DNA of 64,000 bases from an uncultured Alphaproteobacteria bacterium (GTDB lineage: Bacteria > Pseudomonadota > Alphaproteobacteria > Rs-D84). The notes below the pieces were generated by a model, which saw only the letters and a list, made by a program, of their open reading frames with translations, searched no databases and had not been told where the DNA came from. The stretch lies in the NCBI GenBank assembly GCA_944392565.1, contig CALXWX010000001.1, positions 1,444 through 65,443 on the forward strand. Reading direction: 5' to 3'. This document shows, piece after piece, positions 12,082 to 41,786 of this stretch. The position numbers were made by a program, and so were the translations under genes. Numbering within the stretch: the first letter of the stretch is position 1; the number at the start of each line of letters is the position of its first letter.

Positions 12082-12163
12082 TTATAAAAATATTTATTTA
12101 TTCCTTGCGCCAATTATTTTTTTTCAGTATTCTTTTTTTGTTCAACAGACAAAGGAGAAAACT

Positions 12164-16603: not shown

Positions 16604-18736
16604 TTATTTATCGTCATCAGGTTCAACACAGAAATTACTTATTTTCGTCTTTTCATTGCCAAAGAACACCCAGAACTGAACTTTTCTGTCCATTGCTTTT
16701 TGGTCCGGGGTTGGTTTTACCTTTGTTGCACATGTATCCCCTGCACTGCGCGCCTCTATTTTGTCGTCAGTAAGTCCTGTCCAACTCTCTTTAATATAAT
16801 TAACGACAGACTCCGCACGCGCCCGCCCCAGTGCATCATTCGTACAAATCCCAGACCCGTTTTTACATAAAGTACCACCGCGAATAATTCTGTCACTATC
16901 AGTATACCCAAACACAACTATTGTAAAATCAGTATTGGTACCTATTTCTGTTTTCATTTCATTGATGGTTCTATCCAACGTTTCTTTTGCTTTATCTTTT
17001 ATTGTCGTTTCACCACTGTCGAACAATGCATCACCATACAATTTAACAAAAGGCCTTGGTTCTTCGACCACTGGTTGTACCTGGTCAACAATTGCTTCAA
17101 CAACAACACTTCCATCGTCTTCGCATTTTTTTGTATCTTTATTCCAAGTTTTCCCGTTTGGGCAAACACAGCTCCCCCCCTCATCATCCCATGTTCCGTC
17201 CTCTTCCACACAAATATCTTCATCTGATGGTTGCTCTTCAACCGTCTCTTTTTCTGGCTCATGTTCCGGTGGGTTTTCGGTCACTTCTTCACGGGTTTGG
17301 TCTTCTATTTCTTTTAATCTGCGACGCAATTCCCGGCGTTTTTCTTCATATTCTGCAATAATTTCATCAGATTTTTCATCCGGCGCATCACGATTTATCA
17401 GCAAATTACCAACCACACCACCAACAATGCCCACGCCCGCCATAACCGCACCGGTTGTTAATTGTGATTTTGTGTCCGAACGCTGCTGCGCCCATTCGGC
17501 GGCATCGGCGCCGTCTGGGTCTGATAATGCACGCGACAGTGATGTATATGCCCCGTCCGTTATGCCCAATGATTCATCGTCATACAGCCCCATAGTGGCA
17601 CTGTCCAAAATAACTTCGGATTCTATGCCGGGTGTCATTTCCAGTGCATCTTTACGCGTTTTTAAATCCGCCGCCAGTTCCATAAATTGTTGTTTTAGTT
17701 CAATTAAATTATTCCCACCGGGTAATTGAACATCTGTTTCGCCACCCATAATATTGCGACCCTGACCATAATCACAGCGGAATGTTGCCAGATATGCCGC
17801 CATATCGCGTTCAGCGGCGTCATCCGCACGATTTTCGGCAATTGCCGATGCCAATTGCATCCCACCAATCCCAGTCGCCGCAATTGATGCACCACCCAAT
17901 AATTTATTTGCGGTGGATTGTTCTGTTTTTGTCATGGCACTTGCATTTTTCGCCAAATCAGCAATTTTTTGTTCCGACAATTCTGATTCTGAATCTGCAT
18001 CTATGATTTCATCTGACGCGGAACCTGCATCATTATCTGATGAATCTTCTGATGAATCTGATGCATCTGGCTTTTCTGAATCTGTTGTATCCCCACCTGG
18101 GGTTCCCAAATCAGTACCAGCCGCCCCATCCAAGGCAACTGCCTTATCTGCCTCTTTTAAATCAACACTTTCATTACCACTTGTCCTTGCTTTCCCGTAA
18201 TTCTCACCATTACATAAATCCTTTTCGTCGTCATCCGCCGCAACCTTCCTGCTTTTCTGCCCCGGTCCGATCAGAACACAACCTTCGTATTCTGTCGGCA
18301 AAAAATCATTACCACCACTACAATAAACTATTAAGTTTCCGTCATCGTCATCGTCATTCCAACTATATTGCCTTGCCGCGTTATCTATATCTCCATTTAT
18401 CCAACATTCAACTTCGTTGGCTAATTTACACCGATCCCCATCAATGGTACAAATAAAATCAGAAACATAAAAAGGCGTCCTCGCTTCATCTCCCTCATAA
18501 TTCTTAATATATGTACACGCCGCATACATAATTGGTTTCAGTTTTTTAACTTGGGCGGCATCATAATTATCTTCCGCACTCAACTTATAATCATAAATAC
18601 CCAGACACGCAGACAGCCAATGATCGCCGGGCTCATGTCCAATTTCCGACAAACTCACCACCGCCCCCAATGCAACATTTGGCGCCACAACCATTAAAAT
18701 ATAAACCAAAATCCGCGGTAATTTCATTCTCTGCAT
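16604..18736 (-). CDS. Large OmpA-family protein: signal peptide, extensive D/E/S-rich low-complexity region, charged coiled-coil, predicted internal hydrophobic helix, C-terminal OmpA-like peptidoglycan-binding domain
   Basis: The C-terminus (VVFGYTDSD...NDALGRARAESVVNYI...DRKVQFWVF) matches OmpA_C. The N-terminal signal is MKLPRILVYILMVVAPNVALGAV. The ATG start 18736 (MQRMKLPR) was chosen. Confidence 0.7.
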   Translation of the reverse strand: MQRMKLPRILVYILMVVAPNVALGAVVSLSEIGHEPGDHWLSACLGIYDYKLSAEDNYDAAQVKKLKPIMYAACTYIKNYEGDEARTPFYVSDFICTIDGDRCKLANEVECWINGDIDNAARQYSWNDDDDDGNLIVYCSGGNDFLPTEYEGCVLIGPGQKSRKVAADDDEKDLCNGENYGKARTSGNESVDLKEADKAVALDGAAGTDLGTPGGDTTDSEKPDASDSSEDSSDNDAGSASDEIIDADSESELSEQKIADLAKNASAMTKTEQSTANKLLGGASIAATGIGGMQLASAIAENRADDAAERDMAAYLATFRCDYGQGRNIMGGETDVQLPGGNNLIELKQQFMELAADLKTRKDALEMTPGIESEVILDSATMGLYDDESLGITDGAYTSLSRALSDPDGADAAEWAQQRSDTKSQLTTGAVMAGVGIVGGVVGNLLINRDAPDEKSDEIIAEYEEKRRELRRRLKEIEDQTREEVTENPPEHEPEKETVEEQPSDEDICVEEDGTWDDEGGSCVCPNGKTWNKDTKKCEDDGSVVVEAIVDQVQPVVEEPRPFVKLYGDALFDSGETTIKDKAKETLDRTINEMKTEIGTNTDFTIVVFGYTDSDRIIRGGTLCKNGSGICTNDALGRARAESVVNYIKESWTGLTDDKIEARSAGDTCATKVKPTPDQKAMDRKVQFWVFFGNEKTKISNFCVEPDDDK

Positions 18737-19000
18737 CCATATAAAAAACGAACCTTTTAATTCGGCGATGATTGTTTTAATTTTTTTCTGTTTTCTGCCA
18801 CTTTTGGGTGTTGTGTGGTTGCCGAAAAAAAAAGGTTGGTTTATTTTCAACACCCTTTCCCAGTAATTATATCAAATTTACACATTTATTACAATGACTT
18901 TTTCCATCAGACATTCCGAAATTCATGCAAATAATCACTATTGACTTCGATTTACAAAATTTACTATTATCAAAATATAAATATAGTAAAGAGAGATTGC

Positions 19001-19765
19001 ATGACCAACCAATTTCATCGCGCACTGAACAGAATGGCATTTTTTACCGCATTGCTGGTGGCGGGACTGATTTTGTTTTACGAACCGTTTTTGCGTGTGG
19101 CATCGGCAAACATTGTTTTAAATGGAATTATTATCGGCACAACATTATTTGGAATTGGATTGTGCTTTGTCGAAATGTTCAAATTGCTGCCTGAATATAA
19201 ATGGGCGCGGGCATATTTTGCCGGGCGCAAGAATGCCGCCCTGCCCCCGCGGCTGTTGCGACCGGTGGCATTAATGCTGCGTGCGCGTCCATTGCGCATA
19301 CCGGCATCGACATTAAATGGCATGCTGGATATGATTCAAATTCGTTTTGACGATTCGCGCGAATCGGTGCGATATATAACAAACACATTAATATTCTTGG
19401 GATTGTTGGGTACTTTTTGGGGATTAATTATAACCGTTGGCGGATTCGCTGATTTAATTGGCAACTTAAACTTTGCCGATGAAAATGTTTTAACCGCAAT
19501 GCAAAGTGGCTTAACCCGCCCATTATCCGGCATGGCAACCGCATTTACCAGTTCACTGATGGGACTGGCGGGCAGTTTGGCGGTCGGATTTCTGGGACTG
19601 CAAGTGCAATTGGCACAAAATGGTATATTCCGCGATGTCGAAGATTATCTGGCGGCACATACCAGCGTGGCACCAATTGATGACGCATCTGTTGTATGCA
19701 ACGCAACCAAAGAATTAAATAAAAGTGTCCAAGAATTAAAACAAACATTTTCTGAATTGGCATAA
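19001..19765 (+). CDS. MotA/TolQ/ExbB-family proton-channel protein (4 TM, MotA-like topology)
   Basis: Four TM helices are arranged as TM1-TM2, a cytoplasmic loop, then TM3-TM4. Conserved LGLLGTFWGLI and GMATAFTSSLMGLAGSL segments are present. The Shine-Dalgarno sequence is aagagaga and the start is ATG 19001. Confidence 0.65.
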   Translation: MTNQFHRALNRMAFFTALLVAGLILFYEPFLRVASANIVLNGIIIGTTLFGIGLCFVEMFKLLPEYKWARAYFAGRKNAALPPRLLRPVALMLRARPLRIPASTLNGMLDMIQIRFDDSRESVRYITNTLIFLGLLGTFWGLIITVGGFADLIGNLNFADENVLTAMQSGLTRPLSGMATAFTSSLMGLAGSLAVGFLGLQVQLAQNGIFRDVEDYLAAHTSVAPIDDASVVCNATKELNKSVQELKQTFSELA

Positions 19766-19786: not shown

Positions 19787-20899
19787 ATGATAAACTTTCG
19801 TTTTCGTGAAAAAGTAAATACATGGCCGGCATTTGTGGACTTGTTTTCCAATCTGGTTATCATATTGATATTTCTGCTGATTGTATTTGTATTTTTGTGG
19901 ACAACAACCAGTGTATTTAATAAAAACACCGGCGCCAAGACGGTTGCTGACCTGAAACAATTAAATTCCGAACAGGCAGAAAAAATCCAGCAAATGACCG
20001 CCGATGAAGCAACGGCAAAACAATTATTGATAATGGCGCGCAATGAACTGGAAAGTCTGTCTGCAAACAATGAAAAATTATCCACCGAATTGGATGCGGT
20101 AAATACCAGTTTTGATGAACTGGTTACCCAATACGAACAACGGGTTGCCGAACTGCAATCCCAGGGAACAGAATTACAGACCCAGGTTGCAGAATTAACA
20201 ACACAATTGAACCAGGCAACACTGGATAAACAGCGCACCGCCGAACTGGAACAAGAACGTCGCGCATTACAAGATCAAATGACCCAGCAACGTGCGGAAC
20301 TGGCAACGCAATTACAAAAATTACAGGCGGCACTGGATGCCGCCGAAGCGGAATCACACGAAAAAGACATAAAATATGTTGAAATGTCGAATCGATTGAA
20401 CAAGGCATTGGCGGATAAAGTCGCCGAACTGAACAATGTTGCAAAATATCAATCTGCATTTTATCGTGCAATCAAAGACGCATTGGGCGATGACAGTTTT
20501 ATCGAAACCGCCGGCGACAGATTTATTGTATCCAGCGATATTTTATTCAGCAGTGGTTCATACACCCTGTCGCCTGAGGGGAAAAATCAACTGCGCCTGA
20601 TTGCAAATGTAATCAAAGATTTGGAAAACAAGATTCCAACAAACATTGATTGGATAATTCGTGTTGATGGTCACACCGATAAAAAACAGGTTGTCCCCGG
20701 CACACGCGGATATTCAAATAATATGGAATTATCATTATTGCGTGCGAATGCCGTCGTTGATGAATTGGCGCGCAATGGCGTATCGCGGCGGCGCCTGATC
20801 CCCAGTGGATTTGGCGATTTGCATCCAGTTGCATTGGGACGCGATGCCGCCAGTTTGCAGCAAAATCGCCGCATAGAATTACAATTAACAAACAGATAA
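19787..20899 (+). CDS. MotB-like protein: N-terminal TM, ~150-aa coiled-coil linker, C-terminal OmpA/MotB peptidoglycan-binding domain
   Basis: The TM segment is WPAFVDLFSNLVIILIFLLIVFVFLW. The central region is rich in heptad-like Q/E/L repeats. The C-terminus (RVDGHTD...ELSLLRANAVVDEL...NRRIELQL) matches OmpA_C. Confidence 0.65.
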   Translation: MINFRFREKVNTWPAFVDLFSNLVIILIFLLIVFVFLWTTTSVFNKNTGAKTVADLKQLNSEQAEKIQQMTADEATAKQLLIMARNELESLSANNEKLSTELDAVNTSFDELVTQYEQRVAELQSQGTELQTQVAELTTQLNQATLDKQRTAELEQERRALQDQMTQQRAELATQLQKLQAALDAAEAESHEKDIKYVEMSNRLNKALADKVAELNNVAKYQSAFYRAIKDALGDDSFIETAGDRFIVSSDILFSSGSYTLSPEGKNQLRLIANVIKDLENKIPTNIDWIIRVDGHTDKKQVVPGTRGYSNNMELSLLRANAVVDELARNGVSRRRLIPSGFGDLHPVALGRDAASLQQNRRIELQLTNR

Positions 20900-21005
20900 C
20901 AGGATTTTAATTGACATATTTACAAAAAATATGACAAAATATTACATAGAAAAAATGCCGAAAATAAACCACCGTTTAGGTTCGGCACAACAAGGGGGAT
21001 AAAAC

Positions 21006-21797
21006 ATGCAGATTTCTGGGATAATTTCTAAAATAAAAATGCCGATATTAAACGGTGGTTTATTTACAGCAATACTTACCGTAATTATATTATTCAGCCA
21101 TTCTGCAAATGCAACATCCGCTGTTATTCCCAGCTTAAATTGTTCTGAATGCAGCGATGATGTATTGGAACATTCAATGCCAAAAAATTTCACCGCCGCC
21201 GATGGCAAAACATATTCGAATTGCAATGCATTATGCCGGGCGTATCAAACCTTTAGGGAAGACAACACGACCGGCGAACCAAATGAATACGGCGTATATG
21301 TATACAATGTGTATACATACGGTGAAATATGTGGAACATGGAACCCCGGAACACAAATGGGTGCGCTTGGTCAATGTTTTTTAGTATCAAATGAACGCTA
21401 TAAATGCGGTCTGGGATATTATGGTAACGCCACCAGTGCAACATCTGGGTGTACAAAATGCCCGGCAAATGCAACATGTACGCGTGGAACAGGTTTTGAT
21501 TGTAATTCAGGATGGTATGAAAATACCGCCGGTAATGGGTGTTCGCAATGTCCGCCACCAGATACGGGTACAGGTGATAAAAAAAATTGGACTGTTGGCA
21601 GCAGTTATCAAGTCGGTCAATCAGGCGGTATAATAGTGAATGGTCCAACAGGCGCAACCGATATTGGTCAATGCTATTTGGCAAATACCAGTGTTGTAAC
21701 CGACAATACCGGCACATATGAAATAGAGGGGGCAACCGGTGGTGGCGGCGGTCTTTGGGGGCCTGGTAAATACTGTGATTATTACGGTCGGTATTAA
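21006..21797 (+). CDS. Secreted cysteine-rich protein (signal peptide; about 24 Cys; Gly-rich C-terminus)
   Basis: The Shine-Dalgarno sequence is aagggggat. A hydrophobic signal is followed by many CxxC-type spacings. No family was recognised. Confidence 0.55.
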   Translation: MQISGIISKIKMPILNGGLFTAILTVIILFSHSANATSAVIPSLNCSECSDDVLEHSMPKNFTAADGKTYSNCNALCRAYQTFREDNTTGEPNEYGVYVYNVYTYGEICGTWNPGTQMGALGQCFLVSNERYKCGLGYYGNATSATSGCTKCPANATCTRGTGFDCNSGWYENTAGNGCSQCPPPDTGTGDKKNWTVGSSYQVGQSGGIIVNGPTGATDIGQCYLANTSVVTDNTGTYEIEGATGGGGGLWGPGKYCDYYGRY

Positions 21798-21805
21798 TTT
21801 GTTTA

Positions 21806-21838
21806 ATAAAAAATCCCGCAAATGCGGGATTTTTTAAT
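21806..21838. terminator. Terminator atcccgcaaatgcgggat with a T-run
   Basis: The hairpin was read directly. Confidence 0.5.
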
Positions 21839-21867
21839 GTAAAATTCGGTATTATAAATCATACCCG

Positions 21868-22190
21868 ACATTTAAAGCACCACACCAAGTTCCCCTCCGT
21901 TGGAGGGGTGCCGCGCAGCGGCGGGGTGGTCAGAGAGTTCAAGAACGCGTTCCCATTCTGTCCCCCGGTACACTGCCACTCTCTCTTGTCATTGCGAGCC
22001 ATCGCAGATGGCGTGGCAATCTCTTTTTTGTTGTTGTGTCGCTCGGGCGCTTATGCGCCCTGTGCGTATCCTCGTATTTGTTCAAATTGCGCTGCCGCTT
22101 GTTTTCACATACTCGGATTCATTGCGAGCCATCGCAGATGGCGTGGCAATCCAGTAAATATGCCCGCACGCGACACATCAAATTACACAT
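21868..22190. repeat. Copy of the palindromic intergenic element carrying module 2 and two tandem copies of module 3 (cattgcgagccatcgcagatggcgtggcaatc)
   Basis: Shared segments with 14951-15106 were aligned by eye. The ORF track 'MEGCRAAAGWSE...' translations are artefacts of this repeat. Confidence 0.7.
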
Positions 22191-22195
22191 TGCGC

Positions 22196-22228
22196 ATTAA
22201 AAAACGCCCCGTTGGGGCGTTTTTTAAT
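22196..22228. terminator. Bidirectional terminator aacgccccgttggggcgtt
   Basis: A hairpin with A and T flanks. Confidence 0.5.
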
Positions 22229-22605
22229 TACAATTTTTCAACATAGTCAACATCGACTTCGGTTTTAAATAAACCAGAATCAACTTCGCCATACAATTTT
22301 ACTGTATCAGACGGGCTGACCGTTTGCCCACGCCAATCTTTGCGATCAATTTCAATCGTAATTGAACCTGTTGAATCTTGGAACAAATACTTTTCATCAC
22401 CCATGCGCTGAACAATATTACCCTGGATAATAACCGGTGTATCATCGCGCATTTCTTTTACCTGGCTGACCGTTACAATATTTTCTGTTCCACCGACAAA
22501 CCCACCCATTGGCGATGGTGCCTGTGGTGTATTTGGTTGAAAATCCGCATATGCCGCACCACCAACCATTGCGCATACAACCGCCATAATTGACATTTTT
22601 TTCAT
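22228..22605 (-). CDS. BOF (YgiW/YdeI, DUF388) family periplasmic OB-fold protein
   Basis: A signal peptide is followed by TVSQVK...VIIQGNIVQRMGDEKYLFQDSTGSITIEID...VKLYGEVD, matching the BOF family pattern. Confidence 0.75.
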   Translation of the reverse strand: MKKMSIMAVVCAMVGGAAYADFQPNTPQAPSPMGGFVGGTENIVTVSQVKEMRDDTPVIIQGNIVQRMGDEKYLFQDSTGSITIEIDRKDWRGQTVSPSDTVKLYGEVDSGLFKTEVDVDYVEKL

Positions 22606-22685
22606 GTATTACCCCCTTTTGTTCATTTACCCTGTTATATAATATCACATTTATCAATAAAAAAGTCTAGGAAAATTATTCCATA

Positions 22686-22718
22686 TAAAAACGGGAAAAA
22701 TCCCGTTTTTATATTTAC
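22686..22718. terminator. Hairpin aaacgggaaaaatcccgttttt
   Basis: Read directly. Confidence 0.4.
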
Positions 22719-25219
22719 ATAACAATATCTTCACATACTGGTTCTGACGCATTTGTTGTACATTCTGTATTTCGACTGTTATGGAACCAGCTGCTGCTGC
22801 CCGTGGTTTTACAATCTTGCGTAATTGTTGTTGTGCAAATATGACATGTTCTGGTATCGCGACTGAATATCGCTGTGACCTGGCGCGTCATACCACCACC
22901 ACTCAAACTGCTGCCCCCCAGATACCCTTTGTTCGTAAATGTAACACCATCTGTCTGTAAAACACCGGCGCCCCCCTTGGCTAAATCTTCGGTTGTCAAA
23001 CCTGAACCAACATCATAACTGATTGCATACGGCGGGGTTAATGGGGTTGACGCATTTATATCACCGCCACCGGCACCACCATTTTCCGCAATCTTTTGAC
23101 ACATATATTGCGCCAAATCTGTTGATGCATTTTTAGTTGCCTCTGCAATTTCTGTATTTAATTTTGCATTATAATTATCCTGTGCCTGACGTAATGCGGC
23201 AACTGCGATTTGCATTTTTACCTGGTTCAACAGATTCGGGAAGCGCCCTGTGGTTGATGCCCCCACATCACCAGTAATTTGATCCAAACTGCGTCCATTA
23301 ACACAATATTGTATTTCTGGATCTTGTTCAATCATTTCAATCGTGCGATTAATCGTCCCGGCGATATTATTCAATTCTTCTTCGATTGCCGATATAATAC
23401 CATCTGCATTTTCAACATTTTTATTGGTTTCACGAATCTTTGCCAAATATTCTTCAACAGCAATTTCTCCGGGTTCTAATGTTATTTCATCACCATCGCT
23501 GTCAATTGTTGTTTCGCCATCCGCGTTACCCATCTTGATGCTGCCAAATGAAATCATGCCCGTCACACGATATACCGTTCCATCTTTCTGTGAACGCAAT
23601 GACCCGGTACCAATTGTATCATCAGATGCGAAACGATTACAATCAGTGGTGCTGCCACAAACTTCTGCCATTCTTGTATCAACCAAATTCTGGCATTGTT
23701 CCATCATTGCATTATCAATATTCAGATACAGCCCCATCAACATATCATCCAAATCATCCATTGAAAAGTTTGGATTATCTTGCTTGCAAACAACCAAGCT
23801 GTCAATTGGACATATGTTATGGATATATTCATAATCCATACCGATACAATTCTGGAAATTTTCACCACAACGCGTATCCGCGGTAAAGCAATCTTTTACT
23901 TCCTGGGTACATGCATCAACACGCATTGCCGCCAATTTATCTTTTACATAATCCCAAATTTGCGGTTCCATTCTTTCACACGGATCAATTTCAACCTTGC
24001 AAAAACTGCGTGCCATATCTGGTCGTGCCAAACATGCATCCATTGTTGCAACGCCTTTTCCGGCAATATCATCACGACATGCGGTCTGAATACAGTCCGA
24101 AATATCCCCCAAACAAGATTGGCGGAATTTAGATTCCACAATACTTTCCGCAACTTTTATCGTTGGTGCCGATTCGCGCAAGAAATTTGGCCAAACCTGG
24201 TCCCGCACTGCGACACATTGATCCAACACATTTTCACAAATTGGTCGCTTCGCACTAAGTATTTCCATTGTTGACGCGGTTATATCATATGTATCAACCG
24301 TATCAACCGTTGTACCCGCCGTACTGGTCGCTTCATTATTTTGCATATTTTCAGACGCGATTGTTGCAACACAATTTTCCCAATCTTCACCACATGCATC
24401 TTCGGTTTGCATACATTTTTTAAATTCGACCATGCATTGACCCAAATCATATTTATTTGCACTTTCAAAGCTTTCTTGTAATGCAACACGAACCTCAGAC
24501 TGGGCGGCGGCTAAATCAGCTTCTGCCTCTGCCCGCTGTTGGGTCAAAGAATTTTTATATCCCAAACAATCTGATGTAATCTGGCGCGAATATAATTGCC
24601 GCAAAAATTCTATATCATCTGCGCATGAATCTGGAACCTGGGCATAACATAAATTATCTGCCGCACGATATAATTCTGCACCCGTCATATCCGCCATACT
24701 GGCAACCGAGCCATCAAACACATCTTCATCATCTTCATATATACTGTTTGTATTAAACAGTGCCAATAAATCAGCACGCCGTTGTTCTTTTTGTTCTTCT
24801 GCTGTTAATTCACCTTCTGCCAGTATATTTCCATCTGCATCATACCTGCGTTCACCCGTAAATATAATATCTGCATCCGCGCCCGCCTTGACCCGTTCAA
24901 CTTCTTCGGTACGCAGTCGATTTGCTTCATCCAAAATATCTTGAATTTCTGCTAATTCGTTATCATATTCTGTAATATCATCGCTGCATGTACATGCACC
25001 ACCACTGGCATTATCAGTTATACAAAACTGATCCATACAACCAAAATATGCATCATAACATGCCTGGTCGTACAATCCGGTTGCCTCTACCTTTGTACGA
25101 ACGGTCGTCCCCAATTGTATTGCCGATTGCTTGGTTGTTCTGGTCAAACCATAAGAATCCAACGCGACCAATAACGCCGACAAACCAATTACAGATGCAA
25201 AAACATATTTTAGTTTCAT
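22715..25219 (-). CDS. Large secreted cysteine-rich protein, paralog A of a tandem family
   Basis: The signal peptide is MKLKYVFASVIGLSALLVA. The conserved module is CYDAYFGCMDQFC...GGACTCS, with repeated CENVLDQC and CGENFxNC motifs shared with paralogs B and C. The Shine-Dalgarno sequence is aagagg. Confidence 0.7.
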   Translation of the reverse strand: MKLKYVFASVIGLSALLVALDSYGLTRTTKQSAIQLGTTVRTKVEATGLYDQACYDAYFGCMDQFCITDNASGGACTCSDDITEYDNELAEIQDILDEANRLRTEEVERVKAGADADIIFTGERRYDADGNILAEGELTAEEQKEQRRADLLALFNTNSIYEDDEDVFDGSVASMADMTGAELYRAADNLCYAQVPDSCADDIEFLRQLYSRQITSDCLGYKNSLTQQRAEAEADLAAAQSEVRVALQESFESANKYDLGQCMVEFKKCMQTEDACGEDWENCVATIASENMQNNEATSTAGTTVDTVDTYDITASTMEILSAKRPICENVLDQCVAVRDQVWPNFLRESAPTIKVAESIVESKFRQSCLGDISDCIQTACRDDIAGKGVATMDACLARPDMARSFCKVEIDPCERMEPQIWDYVKDKLAAMRVDACTQEVKDCFTADTRCGENFQNCIGMDYEYIHNICPIDSLVVCKQDNPNFSMDDLDDMLMGLYLNIDNAMMEQCQNLVDTRMAEVCGSTTDCNRFASDDTIGTGSLRSQKDGTVYRVTGMISFGSIKMGNADGETTIDSDGDEITLEPGEIAVEEYLAKIRETNKNVENADGIISAIEEELNNIAGTINRTIEMIEQDPEIQYCVNGRSLDQITGDVGASTTGRFPNLLNQVKMQIAVAALRQAQDNYNAKLNTEIAEATKNASTDLAQYMCQKIAENGGAGGGDINASTPLTPPYAISYDVGSGLTTEDLAKGGAGVLQTDGVTFTNKGYLGGSSLSGGGMTRQVTAIFSRDTRTCHICTTTITQDCKTTGSSSWFHNSRNTECTTNASEPVCEDIVM

Positions 25220-25282
25220 TTATAATGCCTCTTTTGCATAACGCATAAAAAGAATAATGCAATTCTGGGCAAATGCCCAAAA

Positions 25283-27433
25283 TTACATATTAATATCTTC
25301 ACAAGATTCAATTTCCTGGCAGAATTCTTGTTCACCACCCGCGGACCGACCGGCAAAGAACCCACCCAAACCACCAACAACCGCACCAATTGCAGTACCC
25401 CAACCTGGTGTCACCATGGTACCAGCCGCCGCCCCCGCAGACAGCCCACCTGCTAATCCCTGAACACCGGCGGCACCCTTGGACTGACCACCAACCTCGC
25501 AAACCTGTTGCATACGGCAAACATGGCAATTACGCAATGATGGTTCCCACGATACACTGCGGATATAGCTGTAATTTTTGCTGGATTCATCTGGAGTTTC
25601 AACCTGGTATGTGTTATAACAGTTTTGTTCCGCTTCTTCTAAGTCTTGCTGGCGTGATAATTCTGCAATTTTTGATTCCAATTCGCGCATCGCACGATTT
25701 TCTGCACCAACTTGCGCAATCATTTTCGCACTGTTAAACACACTGTCCCCCAGGCTTTCACGATCTGCCGGTTTTTGACTGTCCTGGCATGCGGCAACTG
25801 TTTTATCCTGTTCGAATTGAACAAAGAATTCATTAACCGCATTTTCTGTATTTGCACGAACAGTTTCACGCAATGTGGCTAACTCTTCTTGCGTTTCTGG
25901 AACCTCTACCAGTGATGCCACCAATGTATCGGTTGGCAAACAAGACATATCCGTTCCACAAACCGCACCCAATTGTTCACCAAAATAATTCAAGCATCCC
26001 TGTAACATTTGATAATCCATCTGCAACAACACGGCTTGAACGATAATATCAAATTGTGTTTCATTTTTACACGACGGGAACATATCCTGGGGACACAGAC
26101 CTGCAATTTCATTGGCACTTTTCCCCAAGCATTCTGGTGCCGTAAAGTTTTCGCCACATCTGTCACGCAAACACGCATCAATATCATTTTGACAGAACTG
26201 TGTACGCAAATATCCCAACTTGTCATTAACAACCGCCTGTATTCCCGGAATCAATTTTTCACATTCCGTAATAACCGGGCAAATACCCGCCGCAACATTA
26301 ACATCTGTTAAACACGCTGAATTTGTTTCTGTGGAACAACTGTCTTCCAGACACAACTGAATTCGTGCCAAACACGTCCCACGCGCATTTTTATCGGCAT
26401 ATTTTGCCGCCTCTGTCAATATACTAACCGCCTCGTCTTCCCAATCTTCCAACACATAATCACGCACCGCCATGCATTGATCCAAAACATTTTCACACGC
26501 ATTTGCACGACGCTGTAATAAATCTGCATCCAAACAGTTTTCAAAATTTACACCACATCCGCCTTTATCAGAAATACACGAACGATACGCCAATAAACAT
26601 TCACCACGATTATATTTATTTGTTGTATCCAGCATTTGCAAGCGCGCCTGGCGCACTGCTGCCTCTGCCGTGCGTTTATTTTGTTCCGCAATTGATTTTT
26701 GATCTGCCAAATATGTTTCATATGATTTGCAATCTTGAACAATCTGGCGCATATACAGCATTTCTTCCATTTCCGCATCATCACCACACGCCGCCAGCCT
26801 GTCTGCACAAAATTCTGCCGCCATTGCATACAGTGGATCACCAATATCACTGTCAGCACCCAAACTGGCATCTTCTGAATCAGAATTTATCCAATCTGCA
26901 AAACTGATACCCGATATACGCGAACTTTTTTGCGCTGCCTCGCTTTCGCCAAATACTAATTTCGCCTGGGCGCCCAACTGTTCGCGTTCAACACCTTCTG
27001 TATATAACAAATCTGCTTCTTCTTGGATTTCTTGGATTTCTTGAATTAATGATTTCGACTGTTCAATATTTGACGAACATGCACAACGATATCCCTCTGA
27101 TTCATCCAGCAAACAAAAATCATCCATACATGCCCGATATGCATCACGACAGCTTTCACTGGATGTATTATCATCAGATGTTGAATTACCAGAATTACTT
27201 GATCCACTTGACGAATTGCTGCCTGTATTTGGATTCTTGGACAATGTCGGATTAGATGTCGACACACTGGTATTTGTCACCATTTGCGTTGTCCCGGCAA
27301 CCATACTGGGCATACGCGCACCAACCTGGTTTGCACGACTGACGCCAACGCGCACACTGGCACTGTCACGCGTTGCCGCCACTGCAACCCCCGGAATCAT
27401 CATTAAAACAGCAAGAAAGAAGTTCAGTTTCAT
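25283..27433 (-). CDS. Large secreted cysteine-rich protein, paralog B (Ser/Thr/Asn-rich N-terminal stretch then the Cys module)
   Basis: The signal peptide is MKLNFFLAVLMMIPGVAVA. It carries CRDAYRACMDDFC...YRCACSS, ACENVLDQCMAVRD and CGENFTAPEC. The start was trimmed to ATG 27433 with a Shine-Dalgarno sequence aggatggga. Confidence 0.7.
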   Translation of the reverse strand: MKLNFFLAVLMMIPGVAVAATRDSASVRVGVSRANQVGARMPSMVAGTTQMVTNTSVSTSNPTLSKNPNTGSNSSSGSSNSGNSTSDDNTSSESCRDAYRACMDDFCLLDESEGYRCACSSNIEQSKSLIQEIQEIQEEADLLYTEGVEREQLGAQAKLVFGESEAAQKSSRISGISFADWINSDSEDASLGADSDIGDPLYAMAAEFCADRLAACGDDAEMEEMLYMRQIVQDCKSYETYLADQKSIAEQNKRTAEAAVRQARLQMLDTTNKYNRGECLLAYRSCISDKGGCGVNFENCLDADLLQRRANACENVLDQCMAVRDYVLEDWEDEAVSILTEAAKYADKNARGTCLARIQLCLEDSCSTETNSACLTDVNVAAGICPVITECEKLIPGIQAVVNDKLGYLRTQFCQNDIDACLRDRCGENFTAPECLGKSANEIAGLCPQDMFPSCKNETQFDIIVQAVLLQMDYQMLQGCLNYFGEQLGAVCGTDMSCLPTDTLVASLVEVPETQEELATLRETVRANTENAVNEFFVQFEQDKTVAACQDSQKPADRESLGDSVFNSAKMIAQVGAENRAMRELESKIAELSRQQDLEEAEQNCYNTYQVETPDESSKNYSYIRSVSWEPSLRNCHVCRMQQVCEVGGQSKGAAGVQGLAGGLSAGAAAGTMVTPGWGTAIGAVVGGLGGFFAGRSAGGEQEFCQEIESCEDINM

Positions 27434-27573
27434 GTATCCCATCCTACAATATTTACATATAATTTTATCAAAACACACCCACCTGTGCAAGCATATAAAA
27501 ACATCTTGCATTCAACACCACAAAATAATATTATATTTCCAGTATGTTTTTTAGTAAATACAGAGGATAATTA

Positions 27574-27822
27574 ATGGCAAAAGATGATGTAATCGTTTTC
27601 AGTGGTACTGTCGAAGATAAATTACCAAATACGATGTTTCGCGTAAAATTAGAAAACGGTCATGAAATATTGGCAACCGTATGCGGCAAAATGCGCAAGG
27701 CACGCATATGGGTAAATGTTGGCGAACGCGTACGCGTTGAAATGACGCCATATGATCTGGACAAGGGTCGCATAACATTTGTTGAACGCAATCGCCCTGG
27801 CACAGATGCCCCAACAAAATAA
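27574..27822 (+). CDS. infA: Translation initiation factor IF-1
   Basis: [69 protein letters not shown] matches IF-1. The Shine-Dalgarno sequence is GAGGA. Confidence 0.9.
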
Positions 27823-27825
27823 ATA

Positions 27826-27858
27826 CACAATCCCGCGATGCGGGATTTTTTCTTGTTA
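27826..27858 (+). terminator. Terminator atcccgcgatgcgggat with a T-run
   Basis: Read directly. Confidence 0.5.
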
Positions 27859-27932
27859 AAAATAAATTTATATTTAAATAAATTCTTTCCATAAAAATAT
27901 ATTTTTGTTATCATTTAAATATAAATACGGGA

Positions 27933-30455
27933 ATGAAAAGAATTTTGCTTTTTACATTGATGTGTTGCATTGGCATCATGCATGCTGATGCTGCTGTTCG
28001 TGATTCTGAATCAATATCGCGGCAAACATCATCTGGAAACAATTCCGCATCCGTAATTGCGCGAACAACCACCACACCAACATTGCAAAATACATCGATA
28101 TCAAATCGCAGCAATGCATCCACCACAAATTCGCGCAACGCTAAAAGCACTGTCCACCGCACCAACAACATTGTTGCCCGAACATCAAACAACACAATAA
28201 ATCAATCAACAACTGTACGCAGTGCGACAACGGTTAATAACGCATCACGCAGTACCAGAAACGCAACCAATACATCCGCAACAACCGCACGCAACGCAAA
28301 CAATAAAACCGTTGTACGCAGTGCCAAACCACGCCAATCTGTTGCAAATTCTGCCCAAACGGCACGCACCGCACGTGCGACAACAATTGCACCCGCATCG
28401 GTTACAAACACATTTGGCACAGAATATAATGAATGCAGATTGGCATATTTCACATGCATGGATCAATTTTGCGCAAATATGAACGATTCATATCGCCGCT
28501 GTGTATGTTCGTCCAGATTAACAGATATCCAAGAACGCGAACGCGCACTGGGACAAACCGCTGACCAATTGGCTGATTTTAAAAATTTAAATATAGAAGT
28601 TATACCAAAAACCGCCGAAGAAGTTAACGCAATGTTAAACGCCAGCGAAGGCGAACTGGCAATAACCGAAGATAATTCCGCATCCGCACAAAAACTGGCT
28701 GGCATCAGCGAAGTATTAACATCATCAAAATCACAAGCATTAACAACACTGGGGACACTGGACATTGCCGGCGACATAAATCAAATATGGGCAACAACAG
28801 ATTTAGCATCTGGGGAAAATATTGCAAATTTAACGGGCGAACCGTTATATAACGCGGTACATGCGCAATGTGTTGACCTGGTGGCATCCAGTTGTCCATC
28901 ACAATCAACCCTGAACATGGTCATATCTGCATATGGGATGTATATTGAAAACGATTGCACATTATTAATGAACGCCCTGAACAGTCAAAAGGTCCAAGCC
29001 AATCAATCCATTCGTGAAACAGAACGCGAAATGAATGTTGCCCGACTGGAAAATTATAATGCACACAATTCAACATCCATAAATGATTGCATCGCCCAGG
29101 TTCGCACCGACATCACCGCCGATACGGCATGTGGTGCCGATTATGTACATTGCCTGGACATAACGGGGCGATATTTAAATCGCGACACTGGTGAACCGAT
29201 ATATTCACCTGACTTTTACCAATTGGAAAATCAAATCTCGCTGGATGGCGATGTATTAACCAATGCAACAAACAGATTAATTGTCGCCGAATTAAACAGC
29301 AAACGCATTTATGCCGCCCGCGGTCTGGAAACCTGTCGCGATATCGCAGACGAGGTTTGGGATGAATTCGTTCGCCAGGCAATTGTTGAAATATACCAGG
29401 GTCAACAAGAAAAAATCCGCGATGTAAAAAATGAATGCCTGGATGTCGTTAACACATGCTATGACGAACAGAGTAATTCGTTAAAAGATTTTAGTAATAT
29501 TAAAGAAGAACTACTGTTGGGTTCACGTCTGGAATTATCCGAAGAACTATGCGAAGAAAAACTATATGCATGCAGTAATTTATACGGCGATCCAAATGGC
29601 AATGGACTGGAATTATTAATAACTGCAATGCACGAAATCACAGACCAAAAAATTGCCAAAGAATGTCGCGCATTATTGGAAGCATTTGCCCAAGACACAT
29701 GCGCCGTCCCCAGCAACGACACATTGCATTCGTACCCATACGGTTGCCGTGCATATGCCCCCGGCGATCAACGATTTGCCGCAATTCCGATTTGTAATCA
29801 ATCACTGACATCAAACTCATCTTCTAATACCGACAGCGGCGATACCGGCGGTTCAAACCCCGAATTTGATGACAACGGATACACATGCCCGACATTAAAA
29901 CAATACCAATCGTGCAAGCCAGGATACTTTTTATATTACATTGATACAGCAACACAAAACGACTATTATGGCATCGCCGCCAAAGATTTTGTTGGGAATC
30001 AATGCCGCAGCTGTACGACACTGGGACTGGACATCGAAGAATGTCCCGGCGGCACAGAAGTGCCAGCCACAAAAGAAAGTATGTGTGGCACAGACTATGC
30101 CGGCAGTTTATATCAAAAGGTTGTCAGATACGCAACCCAGGTATGTGTACGACCATCAGATTCAGAATCTATTGCATCTGGCGCCATGTCAATACCAACA
30201 GAAGTCATGGGCGATATTAACAGCGTCATGGATTCGATAAAGGTTGACATGGCAAACGAATTATCTAATGAATGTGACCGATTGGGCGGCACATGGGTTG
30301 ATACCCAATGGGTCGACGATGTTGGCGACGATGATATACACGACAAAACCAAACATACACTGTGGAAATATTTCTATGATGAAACAGGTGCAAACACAAA
30401 ATGGGGATATTGCGCTGATAAAAGCAGTGTAGAAACCGCAACAACAGGATTATAA
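27933..30455 (+). CDS. Large secreted cysteine-rich protein, paralog C (long S/T/N/R-rich N-terminal low-complexity region)
   Basis: The signal peptide is MKRILLFTLMCCIGIMHADA. The module CRLAYFTCMDQFC...YRRCVCSS is homologous to paralogs A and B. Many further Cys pairs follow. Confidence 0.7.
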   Translation: MKRILLFTLMCCIGIMHADAAVRDSESISRQTSSGNNSASVIARTTTTPTLQNTSISNRSNASTTNSRNAKSTVHRTNNIVARTSNNTINQSTTVRSATTVNNASRSTRNATNTSATTARNANNKTVVRSAKPRQSVANSAQTARTARATTIAPASVTNTFGTEYNECRLAYFTCMDQFCANMNDSYRRCVCSSRLTDIQERERALGQTADQLADFKNLNIEVIPKTAEEVNAMLNASEGELAITEDNSASAQKLAGISEVLTSSKSQALTTLGTLDIAGDINQIWATTDLASGENIANLTGEPLYNAVHAQCVDLVASSCPSQSTLNMVISAYGMYIENDCTLLMNALNSQKVQANQSIRETEREMNVARLENYNAHNSTSINDCIAQVRTDITADTACGADYVHCLDITGRYLNRDTGEPIYSPDFYQLENQISLDGDVLTNATNRLIVAELNSKRIYAARGLETCRDIADEVWDEFVRQAIVEIYQGQQEKIRDVKNECLDVVNTCYDEQSNSLKDFSNIKEELLLGSRLELSEELCEEKLYACSNLYGDPNGNGLELLITAMHEITDQKIAKECRALLEAFAQDTCAVPSNDTLHSYPYGCRAYAPGDQRFAAIPICNQSLTSNSSSNTDSGDTGGSNPEFDDNGYTCPTLKQYQSCKPGYFLYYIDTATQNDYYGIAAKDFVGNQCRSCTTLGLDIEECPGGTEVPATKESMCGTDYAGSLYQKVVRYATQVCVRPSDSESIASGAMSIPTEVMGDINSVMDSIKVDMANELSNECDRLGGTWVDTQWVDDVGDDDIHDKTKHTLWKYFYDETGANTKWGYCADKSSVETATTGL

Positions 30456-30506
30456 CATCTTGCCATAAATAAAAAAATTTGTTAAAATATAATCCAAGAG
30501 AAAGAG

Positions 30507-31208
30507 ATGAAAAAAACATTCGCATTTTCAATATATTGTTTAATGTTTTCACCGGTTGCATTTGCTGCAACGCCATGGTGGCAACAACCAACGGTTTGCC
30601 GGCTGGATCCAACTGATTGTTATTCCAAAATGGGTGCGGGATATGATGCAGAATTATGGGATTCAACCAGCCAGTGTTGGGGCATGAAATTAATCTGTCC
30701 AGATGCATTGGTCGCCGAAGAATATCAACCTGTTGCAATCGGGCGCACAGAAATTGCCAGTGGCAACAAAATCAAAGAAGATTTTGACCCAGATATTTTA
30801 AATGGTGATTGTTTTGGCGTACGCAAAACAACATCAAATGGAACGATGGCATCTGTTAATGGCGAATATGTTCGTGTTTGGTGCAATGGAATTCTGGATA
30901 ATGCGGATGAATATTTACCAAATGGCGAAATAACATATGGCGCCCAACCAACATGTTCTGACCTGGCAGAATATGGTTATATTGCGGTTGAAAACAATCG
31001 ATGCTATGGCAAATATTATGATATGGCAAAATATTATATCGAATGTAATGGTAATGATATAATGCCCAGTCGTTTAATTGTATTAAATGGCGCTGATTAT
31101 ACAATGTCATCGGGTAATGCACCGGCGGACAAGGACGCTGCCAACGACATATTTGATAAAATGGAATCTGTTTCCCAGACCCAGCGTGAAAAATATTTTA
31201 AAAATTAA
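30507..31208 (+). CDS. Secreted cysteine-containing protein (233 aa)
   Basis: The signal peptide is MKKTFAFSIYCLMFSPVAFA. The Shine-Dalgarno sequence is aagagaaagag. About 12 Cys are present. No family was recognised. Confidence 0.55.
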   Translation: MKKTFAFSIYCLMFSPVAFAATPWWQQPTVCRLDPTDCYSKMGAGYDAELWDSTSQCWGMKLICPDALVAEEYQPVAIGRTEIASGNKIKEDFDPDILNGDCFGVRKTTSNGTMASVNGEYVRVWCNGILDNADEYLPNGEITYGAQPTCSDLAEYGYIAVENNRCYGKYYDMAKYYIECNGNDIMPSRLIVLNGADYTMSSGNAPADKDAANDIFDKMESVSQTQREKYFKN

Positions 31209-31217
31209 TTAAAAATA

Positions 31218-31250
31218 AAAAATCCCCATTTTGGGGATTTTTTATATCAG
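31218..31250. terminator. Bidirectional terminator atccccattttggggat
   Basis: Read directly. Confidence 0.5.
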
Positions 31251-33616
31251 AAATCATACCTGAATTTTAACATTCCCGTATGTGATGTATAACTTTCACG
31301 CAAGTTTAAATTATAATCTAATGTAATATCCCATCCGTCATACAAAATGCCCAATCCGATACCGAATTCACCCCCCATACGGGATAACGCATCACCATTA
31401 ACCACGTATGATGCCGCCCCCGGAATCATAACATTTGCTGCCACAGAATCAGACAAGAAGTCATATGTTGCCGCCGCATGCAGCTGTGGACGCAATTTCA
31501 TTTTCCAATCTGCCCCAACGATAAATGAATAATCTAATCCTGCGACCCCGGTTAAAAAGTTTGTATCATCGACACTTATATCTGCAACACCATTGTTATA
31601 ATCATCATGGGAAATATGCAAATATCGCGCACCAATTTCCGGCGTTAATCCAGACGCAAAATCATATCCCGTCATTATTTGTCCGCCAAATGAATTAACA
31701 TCATATTCAGATTCAAATAAAACCCCAAATGCGCTGGCTGTTTCTGTATACTTTGCCATCGTATAATTCAATGCAGCATTTATAAACCACTTATTCGGTT
31801 GATATTGTCCATATATAAACAGTGTATTACTTTCTATATCTGTATCGCGCGACACAGAATCAATATCCGAATTACTATATGAATATCCCGCACCAATTGT
31901 ATATTTTTTATTTATCAGCGCATCTGCACCAACCGCCAATCCGCGCGTATATCCACTGAACACATCAGAATACTTGGTTTTATTAAATATCCCATGCCCC
32001 CAAACACCATAATCCGTTGTAACCGCATCGCCACCATTTCGCCCAATCGTTCCACCAGACATACGCCCAGACACTAATGACAGAACTTGATTCTGAACAG
32101 ATGCCGCAACAGATTGCACCACAGGCTTGTCTTCGGCACGCAACTTTGCCGCCTCATCTTCTACATACCCAATATTTCCATCTGCCAATGCTTGTTGCGC
32201 GTTCAGCGATGCAACGCCAATCGAATAATTATCTGTATTTGCCAAACCCGACAATACCGCTGCCGCATTCGTTGTTAAATTATTTGACTTTGCAATTTCA
32301 TCAACTGATTTTGTTTCGAAAATAACCGTCCCACCATTTTGCGTCATATTATATAACGCATCATTATAATTAATATTTATATCTGCATCTGTAGAAAACA
32401 AATCATATTCCCCCGCCGTCCCCAGCGAAATATCCACAGCGCCATTTTCCCCAATATTATAATTATCTGCCAACAGTCGACCATACGAATTTGAATTAAT
32501 AATTGACATTGATACTGTGCCATTTAAATTTACAGTCCCCTGTTCAACTGTTGTGGCACCAATATCCAGTGTTGCCCCATCCGTAATTATCATTTGCCCA
32601 TCACCAGAAATACCGCCACCTATTTTAGTTGTACCATCCGCAATAACCAATTCCCCCATATTATGAATGTCATTTGCAAAATCACCCGCGGTATTACCAG
32701 AAAAAATATTATCACCACGCAAAGTGATTTTCCCACCCAGCGCATTATATATCGCCCCACCATTTTCACCGGCACGATTATTTAAAAATTGTGTATCTTT
32801 TATTGTAATTGTTGGCTGTGCGTCCGCCTGATTTTCAACATTTGCAATTGCGCCACCAATTTTTCCCGCCTGGTTTCCACTGAACACCGATTTATCTATT
32901 ATGCCGATTGTGCCAGCATTTGTAATCGCCCCACCCTGCTGAACATCGCCATTTAATGCCGTATTATTCACAAATTGCGTATTTACAATCCCATTAACAA
33001 CACTGCCCCATGAACCATTATTTATTGCCCCACCATTACCAGACGCATTCTGCATAAACAAAGAATCTTTTATATCTTCGATTTTACCCTGGTTGCGAAT
33101 CGCCCCACCCTGGGAAGAACCGGCATAGTTCCCAATAAAACTGGAATTTGCAATTAATTTTATCACCCCGCCCGCGCCAGCACCAATTAAATTAGAATTA
33201 TTAATCGCCCCACCCATCGCCGCAGAATTTTCTTGGAACAATACATGCGTTAAACTGTCAATTACACCATTATTATATATTGCACCACCGGCACTGTTTG
33301 CCTGATTTTTATAAAAAGATAATTGCCCTGTATCTGCAATTTGTGTTAAATTCCCCTCATTCCAAACAGCGCCACCAAACACCGCCTGGTTTCCAGACAT
33401 AATAACACCCGCACCAATATTTAAATCACCGGCATTAAACACAACACCGCCGTTTGAATCTGTCGTACTATATTCACTGTATTTTGAATTTTCTAATGTT
33501 TCTGTTTCCCCCGTATTAATAATAATTTTATCTGCCGCTGCGGCTGGCACGGCAATCAAAACAGACAATACAGAACAATATCTTAATAAAAATTCCCAAC
33601 ATGTATGAACAGACAT
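31247..33616 (-). CDS. Autotransporter with Pmp-like (GGA[ILV]/FxxN) passenger repeats and a C-terminal beta-barrel ending KFRYDF
   Basis: There is an N-terminal signal and many GGAI(N/Y)N and FSGN/FIGN/FLNN repeats. The C-terminal ~280 aa is about 65% identical to the autotransporter at 52972-57042. A terminal aromatic residue is present. The Shine-Dalgarno sequence is aaagggggat. Confidence 0.8.
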   Translation of the reverse strand: MSVHTCWEFLLRYCSVLSVLIAVPAAAADKIIINTGETETLENSKYSEYSTTDSNGGVVFNAGDLNIGAGVIMSGNQAVFGGAVWNEGNLTQIADTGQLSFYKNQANSAGGAIYNNGVIDSLTHVLFQENSAAMGGAINNSNLIGAGAGGVIKLIANSSFIGNYAGSSQGGAIRNQGKIEDIKDSLFMQNASGNGGAINNGSWGSVVNGIVNTQFVNNTALNGDVQQGGAITNAGTIGIIDKSVFSGNQAGKIGGAIANVENQADAQPTITIKDTQFLNNRAGENGGAIYNALGGKITLRGDNIFSGNTAGDFANDIHNMGELVIADGTTKIGGGISGDGQMIITDGATLDIGATTVEQGTVNLNGTVSMSIINSNSYGRLLADNYNIGENGAVDISLGTAGEYDLFSTDADININYNDALYNMTQNGGTVIFETKSVDEIAKSNNLTTNAAAVLSGLANTDNYSIGVASLNAQQALADGNIGYVEDEAAKLRAEDKPVVQSVAASVQNQVLSLVSGRMSGGTIGRNGGDAVTTDYGVWGHGIFNKTKYSDVFSGYTRGLAVGADALINKKYTIGAGYSYSNSDIDSVSRDTDIESNTLFIYGQYQPNKWFINAALNYTMAKYTETASAFGVLFESEYDVNSFGGQIMTGYDFASGLTPEIGARYLHISHDDYNNGVADISVDDTNFLTGVAGLDYSFIVGADWKMKLRPQLHAAATYDFLSDSVAANVMIPGAASYVVNGDALSRMGGEFGIGLGILYDGWDITLDYNLNLRESYTSHTGMLKFRYDF

Positions 33617-37255: not shown

Positions 37256-37260
37256 AAGAT

Positions 37261-40758: not shown

Positions 40759-40771
40759 TGAATACATTGAT

Positions 40772-41784: not shown

Positions 41785-41786
41785 AT

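Follow-up and report, generated by a model that had tools for sequence, protein, structure and literature searches.

The cysteine-rich outer membrane complex of chlamydiae (OmcB/OmcA, MOMP and the Pmps) is the closest functional analogy to the genes described in this work, and the closest structural principle is that of the CHCH (Cx9C) proteins and the small Tims (Cx3C) of the mitochondrial intermembrane space, where periodic cysteines (Cys) staple neighbouring helices in an envelope compartment. Comparisons can also be drawn with the Sel1-like Hcp proteins of Helicobacter and with the envelope tethers Lpp, Pal/OmpA and SlyB/Pcp. The genes in question lie in a 64-kb stretch of DNA (hereafter the window, meaning the whole stretch analysed) from a Candidatus Enterousia-like alphaproteobacterium of the order Rs-D84. 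Three of them, which we call A, B and C, encode large exported Cys-rich proteins, and two smaller Cys-rich proteins of exported type, S1 and S2, are encoded around them (Table 1). Judged by sequence and predicted architecture, A, B and C represent a new protein family, which is a member of no named one.

The resemblance to the chlamydial complex lies in the presence of large exported proteins with about 4-5% Cys in a bacterium that depends on a host and has undergone genome reduction, in the Pmp-repeat autotransporters encoded alongside, and in the need for periplasmic disulfide chemistry; OmcB, too, carries a basic N-terminal segment. The two systems are nonhomologous, and the Pfam and NCBIfam models of chlamydial cysteine-rich outer membrane proteins matched none of A, B, C, S1 and S2 at E<=1, nor any of 49 family members at E<=0.05. 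Moreover, the A/B/C family is predicted to be alpha-helical and not beta-rich, the even and invariant Cys counts of A and B favour staples within the chain over an intermolecular cross-linked lattice, and Rs-D84 reportedly retains cell-wall and rod-shape genes (PMC12306168). Compared with the CHCH proteins and the small Tims, the proteins analysed here are bacterial and 10-20 times larger, and the spacing of their Cys, whose pairing is predicted, is Cx6C; no CHCH match (Pfam) was found in A, B or C, and the spacings Cx9C and Cx3C are not enriched. The Helicobacter Hcp proteins share with them the export, the helical structure, the disulfides (predicted in A, B and C) bridging pairs of helices and the origin from a gut-associated proteobacterium. 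The Sel1 repeat gave no match in A, B or C at E<=1, and the alignment of the core halves with hhalign revealed no regular tandem repeat of about 36 residues, only one 28-residue Cys motif being repeated. Lastly, a proposed rod or anchor between envelope layers, the glycine-zipper-like C-terminus of B and an OmpA-rich neighbourhood recall Lpp, Pal/OmpA and SlyB/Pcp; however, A, B and C have neither a lipobox nor an OmpA or peptidoglycan-binding domain, and the match to Gly-zipper_Omp is below threshold. Autotransporter beta-barrels and Pmp repeats (GGA[ILV]/FxxN) are likewise absent from the three proteins.

An earlier note on this DNA had listed the five open reading frames (ORFs) and had proposed that A, B and C share a Cys-containing module. 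The five ORFs are located where the note had placed them, and A, B and C are true paralogs according to both BLASTP and a hidden Markov model (HMM) of the core, which picks exactly these three ORFs in the window. A and B are 29% identical across about 480 amino acids (aa; E 2e-55), and C was retrieved with E values of 3e-21 (A) and 1e-13 (B); overall, the identities among the three paralogs are 24-29% and the shared Cys-rich module comprises about 460 residues. These alignments, obtained with compositional adjustment, span the Cys-rich helical core and fall outside the low-complexity N-termini. The motif CxDAYxxCMD(Q/D)FC...CxCS reads CYDAYFGCMDQFC..GACTCS in A, CRDAYRACMDDFC..YRCACS in B and CRLAYFTCMDQFC..RRCVCS in C. 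The motif CG(E/x)(N/D)(F/W/Y)xxC also occurs in all three (twice in A), whereas CENVLDQC(V/M)AVRD, which the note had attributed to the whole set, is present in A and B and missing from C. Its two copies in A form an internal repeat of the core, C-x6-C-x6-CG-x4-NC (residues 262-283 and 437-458), which hhalign detects with a probability of 89% and E 2e-6.

The scans of Pfam, NCBIfam and PADLOC gave nothing above threshold, whether for the five Cys-rich proteins of the cluster (A, B, C, S1 and S2), for seven longer members of the family or for 49 aligned members, with sub-threshold noise limited to MG280, Dynamin_M, ZorA (E 0.27) and LeoBC (E 0.0014). The core profile matched no PDB chain at E<=10, and the PDB fold searches retrieved no structural relative. 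These data are in agreement with the previous suggestion of a lineage-specific, disulfide-rich exported family with no named domain. As for the fold, the comparison of the model of A, which is of moderate confidence, with the PDB suggests that it might be new as well.

An exhaustive HMMER search revealed the same module in metagenomes, in 852 clusters at 50% identity, 400 of which have E<=1e-30. In the collections searched, the family was seen only in gut alphaproteobacteria of the Rs-D84/Candidatus Enterousia lineage, from gut metagenomes of humans, ruminants, horses, poultry and termites, and no relative was found in phage records, viral contigs or plasmids. All the 79 loci drawn from one-genome-per-species collections belong to metagenome-assembled genomes of gut, rumen or termite Alphaproteobacteria labelled Enterousia or "Rickettsiales", one of them a circular genome of 0.96 Mb. 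Near-identical proteins occur on many gut-metagenome contigs (the exact A protein on at least 22 public ones), and an ortholog with 85% identity is labelled Candidatus Enterousia intestinigallinarum. Members of Rs-D84 reportedly have genomes under 1 Mb, do not respire and lack most biosynthetic pathways, and an obligate partner-dependent lifestyle has been inferred for them as probable (PMC12306168).

The organization of the locus is strongly maintained. In a tblastn search of the window proteins over 82 related loci, practically all species showed the arrangement S2-C-infA-B-A, as a rule with BOF coming next; the identities were 47-86% (A), 42-88% (B), 46-72% (C) and 41-73% (S2), and exactly three family members are present in 70 of 84 loci. 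A fourth paralog, D (about 970 aa), shares 35% identity with A and is encoded away from the cluster. In locus L083 (NODE_1_length_931583, 0.93 Mb) it occupies positions 10001-12910, beside the rpoA-rplQ end of the ribosomal protein cluster, and downstream of it there are several large hypothetical proteins and one OmpA/CarboxypepD_reg protein. As with the association of the cluster with infA, the position of D next to rpoA/rplQ puts the family alongside highly expressed housekeeping genes. The low identity among A, B and C, together with the existence of 1:1 orthologs in the same order in about 79 species-level genomes, implies that the duplications are older than the radiation of the lineage. 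On these sequence comparisons, A, B and C are ancient and fixed paralogs, and the (recent) expansion by tandem duplication that the note had envisaged is not borne out.

Each of the 36 Cys of A and of the 36 Cys of B is conserved in 92-100% of the orthologs across 75-79 species; the number is exactly 36 in 62/75 orthologs of A and in 73/79 of B, and it is even in 67/75 and 79/79 of them, respectively. Seventeen Cys are invariant over 95 family representatives. Such even and invariant counts fit a complete intramolecular pairing in A and B. The spacing Cx6C, that is, one heptad, is found 10 times in A (1.6 expected), 8 times in B (1.8 expected) and 4 times in C (1.1 expected), and neither Cx9C (1 vs 1.5 expected) nor Cx3C (0 vs 1.5 expected) is enriched in A. 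In the AlphaFold2 model of A, obtained with a 49-sequence alignment, nearly the whole stretch between residues 46 and about 715 is helical, including helices of 35-58 residues, and a small five-stranded beta region occupies 760-833; the confidence of the model is moderate (predicted local distance difference test, pLDDT, 62.9; predicted template modelling score, pTM, 0.38). From the spacing and the model we infer that heptad-spaced (Cx6C) disulfide staples may join the helices of A and B. The situation of C is different: the count is odd in 54/76 orthologs (29, 31, 33, 35 and so on), and S2, whose gene is always directly downstream of C, has 9 mature Cys in 53/57 orthologs. The two genes are adjacent and co-conserved and each product has one spare Cys, which suggests an intermolecular C-S2 disulfide, S2 being probably the partner of C. 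The AlphaFold2 model of S2 has a pLDDT of 74.8.

In agreement with the note, each protein has the features of a signal peptide, namely a K/R n-region, then a hydrophobic h-region and a small-x-small site, and most of the 57-79 orthologs retain them. The signal peptidase I sites of A, B and S2 are of the AxA type, and a mature N-terminus A-[VT]-R-[DN] is common to the orthologs of B and C; a covalent link of the mature N-terminal Ala to peptidoglycan, known from some alphaproteobacteria, was considered as a conceivable attachment. No lipobox with a lipidated Cys was found in A, B, C or S2; Cys11/12 of C fall within the signal peptide and are kept in 22-28% of the orthologs. In the family, the signal peptide is followed by a Cys-free, A/T/S/G-rich basic segment (median length 98 aa, median net charge +9). 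In A, a short linker leads to the Cys-rich all-alpha core of about 480 aa (residues ~46-530), followed by a helical region, a Gly-rich segment and a small C-terminal beta/Cys domain. In B, an S/T/N-rich linker precedes the same core, with a Cys number matching that of A, and the terminal Cys domain embeds a hydrophobic glycine-zipper-like segment (residues ~648-698), with 0.61-0.85 identity per block in the orthologs. In C, a basic T/S/N/R-rich segment of 145 aa (net charge about +14) is followed by a divergent copy of the core and by a variable C-terminal region holding one Cys repeat of the CxxGY...GNxCxxC type, of which some orthologs have several copies (P0127 about six). The C-terminus of A, B and D is a small Cys-containing domain ending in C-x-D-x-x-M/F/Y; this ending was considered as a beta-signal-like motif for outer-membrane targeting, and it was discarded since it does not fit the usual alternating pattern.

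The evolutionary rates separate the members of the cluster. At 24-29% identity the ratio between nonsynonymous and synonymous substitution rates (dN/dS) is not meaningful among the paralogs; orthologs were used instead, and dN was computed against those of the eight closest species. The values were 0.10-0.17 for A and 0.08-0.17 for B, against 0.21-0.32 for C and 0.18-0.40 for S2; the comparators gave 0.06-0.09 (infA), 0.10-0.16 (BOF) and 0.09-0.14 (OmpA370, the MotB-like protein). The dN/dS ratio is at most about 0.2, indicative of purifying selection on A, B and C, although dS is saturated (above 1) and the ratios are thus rough. In the set of closest species, the median identity is 80-81% for A and B and 65-67% for C and S2, so that the latter two evolve faster; it is 78-81% for BOF and the MotA-like/MotB-like pair (h274, OmpA370), and 51% for the adjacent Pmp autotransporter (47-51% where A has 65-80%). 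Hence, A and B, being as conserved as BOF and the MotA/MotB-like pair and above the Pmp protein, behave as internal envelope components and not as exposed variable antigens. For these two proteins, conserved like their periplasmic and inner-membrane neighbours, the host-interaction role hinted at in the note is not favoured.

From paralogy, conservation, Cys pattern, export signals, helical prediction, synteny and rates, all obtained directly in this work, we infer disulfide formation, localisation, assembly and a structural role as follows. A, B, C and D would be exported through Sec and oxidized in the periplasm, presumably by the nearby DsbA, to which they might be functionally linked. They would then fold into a long, mostly alpha-helical body, whose helices, with Cys often one heptad apart (Cx6C), would be stapled by intramolecular disulfides, 18 in A and 18 in B. 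Ahead of this body there would be the basic, Cys-free, A/T/S-rich flexible segment, and after it the small Cys-containing beta domain, whose glycine-zipper-like hairpin (in B and many D proteins) could sit in a membrane leaflet. According to this model, A, B and D might act as non-variable structural subunits forming a disulfide-stabilised strut or scaffold, located either in the periplasm or at the inner surface of the outer membrane; C and S2, perhaps held together by one intermolecular disulfide, might constitute a module that varies more and possibly faces outward. We hold such a DsbA-dependent structural role in the envelope, built from an A, B, D scaffold and a C-S2 module, as a tentative reading, to which we assign slightly less than an even chance.

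Several points weigh against it. The retention of RodA, MreB and MrdA in Rs-D84 (PMC12306168) implies a peptidoglycan wall, so that the need for a disulfide scaffold is not evident. Conditions in the gut lumen are anaerobic, and neither DsbB nor VKOR was seen in the 64-kb window. As to the membrane contact, residues 659-698 of B matched the Pfam family Gly-zipper_Omp with 17.1 bits (E 0.005), below its cut-off of 25, and the hydrophobic glycine-zipper-like tail is found in just part of the family, namely B and some to many of the D proteins. To these points have to be added the moderate confidence of the model of A and the roughness of the dN/dS ratios. Finally, the search for a beta-barrel, a lipobox or any known secretion signal in A, B and C gave nothing, so that exposure at the surface is conceivable.

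The alternative that fares best is that the proteins are surface adhesins involved in the interaction with a host or partner cell. They would attach this metabolically dependent bacterium to mucus or to another cell, the helical rod serving as a stalk and the basic N-terminal segment as the part that binds anionic polymers of the surface. The large size of these exported proteins and their basic flexible N-terminal segments (median +9 over about 98 aa) fit this idea, as do the obligate partner-dependent lifestyle proposed for the lineage (PMC12306168), the Pmp-type autotransporters adjoining the cluster, the faster evolution of C and S2, the variable-copy Cys repeat of C and the phase variation of the neighbouring S1. 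However, the conservation of A and B is that of periplasmic or inner-membrane neighbours and far above that of the Pmp autotransporter; no evident route across the outer membrane exists, as neither a barrel nor a signal of type 5, type 1 or type 9 secretion systems nor a lipobox was found; and a strict 1:1:1:1 set of paralogs is unlike an adhesin repertoire. We consider this explanation doubtful for the family as a whole; C and S2 support it better than A and B do.

It is also conceivable, if improbable, that the proteins are saposin-like scavengers of lipids or other hydrophobic nutrients, periplasmic or secreted, whose stapled helices would open around a ligand. Their helical and disulfide-rich architecture would suit such a task, ABC exporter-type genes lie nearby, and Rs-D84 is reported to be devoid of lipid, amino-acid and nucleotide biosynthesis and of standard uptake transporters (PMC12306168); yet, with 700-970 aa, the proteins are far above the size of known carriers, the four obligatory paralogs would be left unexplained, and no sequence similarity points in this direction. 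The possibility of a recently expanded and fast-diversifying tandem family serving antigenic or phase variation is very improbable: in spite of the adjacency of the genes and of the phase-variable S1 nearby, the divergence of the paralogs, their syntenic 1:1 orthologs throughout the order, the purifying selection on all of them, the number of copies in the window (three) and the absence of inverted repeats or switch elements at A, B and C speak against it. Even though S/T/N-rich and charged helical stretches do exist in these proteins, a mere compositional artefact of low-complexity or coiled-coil stretches can be dismissed almost with certainty, given that the alignments run through the Cys core with its 17 invariant residues and that 400 clusters were retrieved at E<=1e-30.

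The note had described S1 and S2 as two smaller proteins bracketing the cluster. The two are not equivalent: S2 is conserved and probably the partner of C, whereas S1 is parted from A by the BOF gene, was seen only in this species (tblastn over the related loci) and is not significantly similar to any of A, B, C and S2. An alignment of S1 with the C-type repeat region of P0127 comprises five repeats with the pattern CxxGYY..GNxCxxCP, and with E 0.1-0.3 it is suggestive only. The 5' end of S1 embeds an invertible DNA switch (Table 1), whose repeat (AAACCACCGTTTA) is the top inverted repeat of the region and whose core contains the ribosome-binding site (AAGGGGGA) and also the S1 start codon (ATG at 21006) with the first 11 codons. 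About 70 bp are exchanged, and the segment, which is in the ON orientation in the window, is exactly reverse-complemented in the independent assemblies L002 and L085 with respect to L001 and the window. Many contigs carry the ON version (262/263 aa) and many the OFF version (205/206 aa), the OFF-form protein being present on 12; when the segment is flipped, gene callers take Met58 as the start of S1, which removes the signal peptide. Like fimS, hin and the capsule promoters of Bacteroides, this inverton has inverted repeats, exists in both orientations in natural populations and carries expression signals of a surface-type gene; unlike them, it is very short and carries a ribosome-binding site, a start codon and 11 codons rather than a promoter. 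No site-specific recombinase domain was detected in any sizeable ORF of the 64-kb window; the enzyme may be encoded elsewhere in the genome. These sequence data point to S1, and not to A, B or C, as the phase-variable protein of the region, presumably exposed.

The coordinates of the cluster and of its surroundings are collected in Table 1.

Table 1. Features of the window discussed in the text (positions refer to the whole 64-kb stretch).
Feature	Position	Strand	Description
DNA methylase	7848-9080	-	N6/N4 DNA methylase with RAMA domain
DsbA	12164-12997	+	DsbA-like periplasmic thiol:disulfide oxidoreductase; Pfam DSBA, E 3.3e-20
OmpA-domain protein	16604-18853	-	Large (707-749 aa), 17 Cys, acidic low-complexity middle, hydrophobic Gly-rich segment
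MotA-like protein	18941-19765	+	MotA/ExbB/TolQ-like membrane protein matching the transmembrane-domain models of ZorA in PADLOC (E 1e-13); nothing in Pfam
MotB-like protein	19787-20899	+	PRK09039-type peptidoglycan-binding protein; NCBIfam E 1.6e-72, under its cut-off
Invertible switch, S1 5' end	20956-21071		32-nt imperfect inverted repeats at 20956-20987 and 21040-21071; 52-bp core
S1	21006-21797	+	263 aa, 15 Cys, exported-type; CxxGYY..GC.KCP-type repeats
BOF	22228-22605	-	YgiW-type periplasmic OB-fold gene; Pfam BOF, E 2e-30; downstream of A; synteny kept
Hairpin after A	22683-22714		Terminator-like; pattern match only
A	22715-25219	-	834 aa, 36 Cys; C-terminal end CEDIVM
Hairpin, 63-bp B-A gap	25257-25288	-	Terminator-like; pattern match only
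B	25283-27433	-	716 aa, 36 Cys; C-terminal end CEDINM
infA	27574-27822	+	Translation initiation factor IF-1; Pfam eIF-1a, E 2.3e-23; between B and C
Hairpin after infA	27829-27847		Terminator-like; pattern match only
C	27933-30455	+	840 aa, 31 Cys (29 in the mature protein, odd)
S2	30507-31208	+	233 aa, 10 Cys (9 invariant in the mature protein, odd); beta-rich, exported-type
Hairpin after S2	31215-31245		Terminator-like; pattern match only
Pmp autotransporter adjoining S2	31247-33616	-	Pmp-repeat; Pfam Autotransporter, 6.8e-30; Chlam_PMP, 5e-13
Peptidase_S41, first gene	37222-38355	+	Tail-specific protease family; overlaps the second gene
Peptidase_S41, second gene	38352-39506	+	Tail-specific protease family
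ORFs after Peptidase_S41 pair	39497-42596		Several, no Pfam match
Helicase-type protein	47507-50332	+	ResIII/DEAD, 941 aa
Second Pmp autotransporter	52846-57042		Pfam scan of the window
Choloylglycine hydrolase, first paralog	57159-58247	+	Bile-salt hydrolase/linear amide C-N hydrolase; Pfam CBAH, 2e-64
Choloylglycine hydrolase, second paralog	58252-59358	+	Tandem with the former; Pfam CBAH, 5e-67

The genes A and B are transcribed leftward and infA, C and S2 rightward from a divergent gap of 140 bp; the three paralogs are not on one strand, and infA lies between B and C, embedded in the cluster as the note had indicated. infA is a housekeeping gene outside the Cys-rich family, and its location is kept in nearly all the related loci. 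The size range of 742-840 aa given in the note applies to A and C and not to B, since 742 aa is merely the longest ORF. Three observations favour the start at 27433: the presence of an AGGA ribosome-binding site, the N-termini of the orthologs, which begin MKL..., and the agreement with the public gene call; the longer form has neither a ribosome-binding site nor ortholog support and was rejected. In the case of C, the public gene calls shorten the protein to 658 aa, cutting through the conserved CxxAYxxCMDQFC motif, and two small opposite-strand ORFs (85 and 86 aa) are called over its basic N-terminal region (window 27933-28480; L001 6761-7309). The form of 840 aa, with the signal peptide MK..ADA|AVRD, is the one kept in about 76 orthologs.

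The cluster is surrounded by envelope-type genes, namely those for DsbA, SLT, OmpA-domain proteins, the MotA/MotB-like pair, BOF, SurA and the Pmp autotransporters. The DsbA-like oxidoreductase and the Pmp-like autotransporters that the note had recognised nearby were both retrieved by Pfam, and the DsbA gene is in the same neighbourhood on public contigs. Cys is almost absent from other exported proteins of the window (the two Pmp autotransporters, SLT, BOF and SurA). The MotA/MotB-like pair is stator-like and syntenic with the cluster in many genomes of a lineage reportedly devoid of flagella. The large OmpA-domain protein (16604-18853) is poorly kept, with 40-51% identity between species where detectable. 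Farther away, both tandem choloylglycine hydrolase paralogs have a signal peptide followed by the catalytic Cys, which is worth mentioning for a gut genome under 1 Mb, and the methylase and the helicase-type protein might serve restriction-modification or defence in this minimal genome.

What is new in this locus is a protein family and its predicted architecture, and not a demonstrated cellular system. It can be speculated that these tiny-genome bacteria, widespread in human and animal gut microbiomes, build part of their envelope from a new class of Cx6C-stapled helical rods, and that the four obligatory paralogs and a disulfide-linked C-S2 head might form a new envelope or attachment structure central to the partner-dependent lifestyle, with a logic convergent with that of the chlamydial complex and with unrelated sequence and fold; we regard this broader scenario as unlikely on balance. 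In a genome of about 0.9 Mb, the family takes up about 7 kb of the window, plus a fourth gene elsewhere; it is kept in all the related genomes that were covered, and has neither a name nor a domain annotation nor a structural relative. This conserved set of exported, disulfide-rich proteins is a leading candidate for the structure that defines the envelope of the lineage or its contact with a partner, and the heptad-spaced disulfide staples may offer a new protein architecture.

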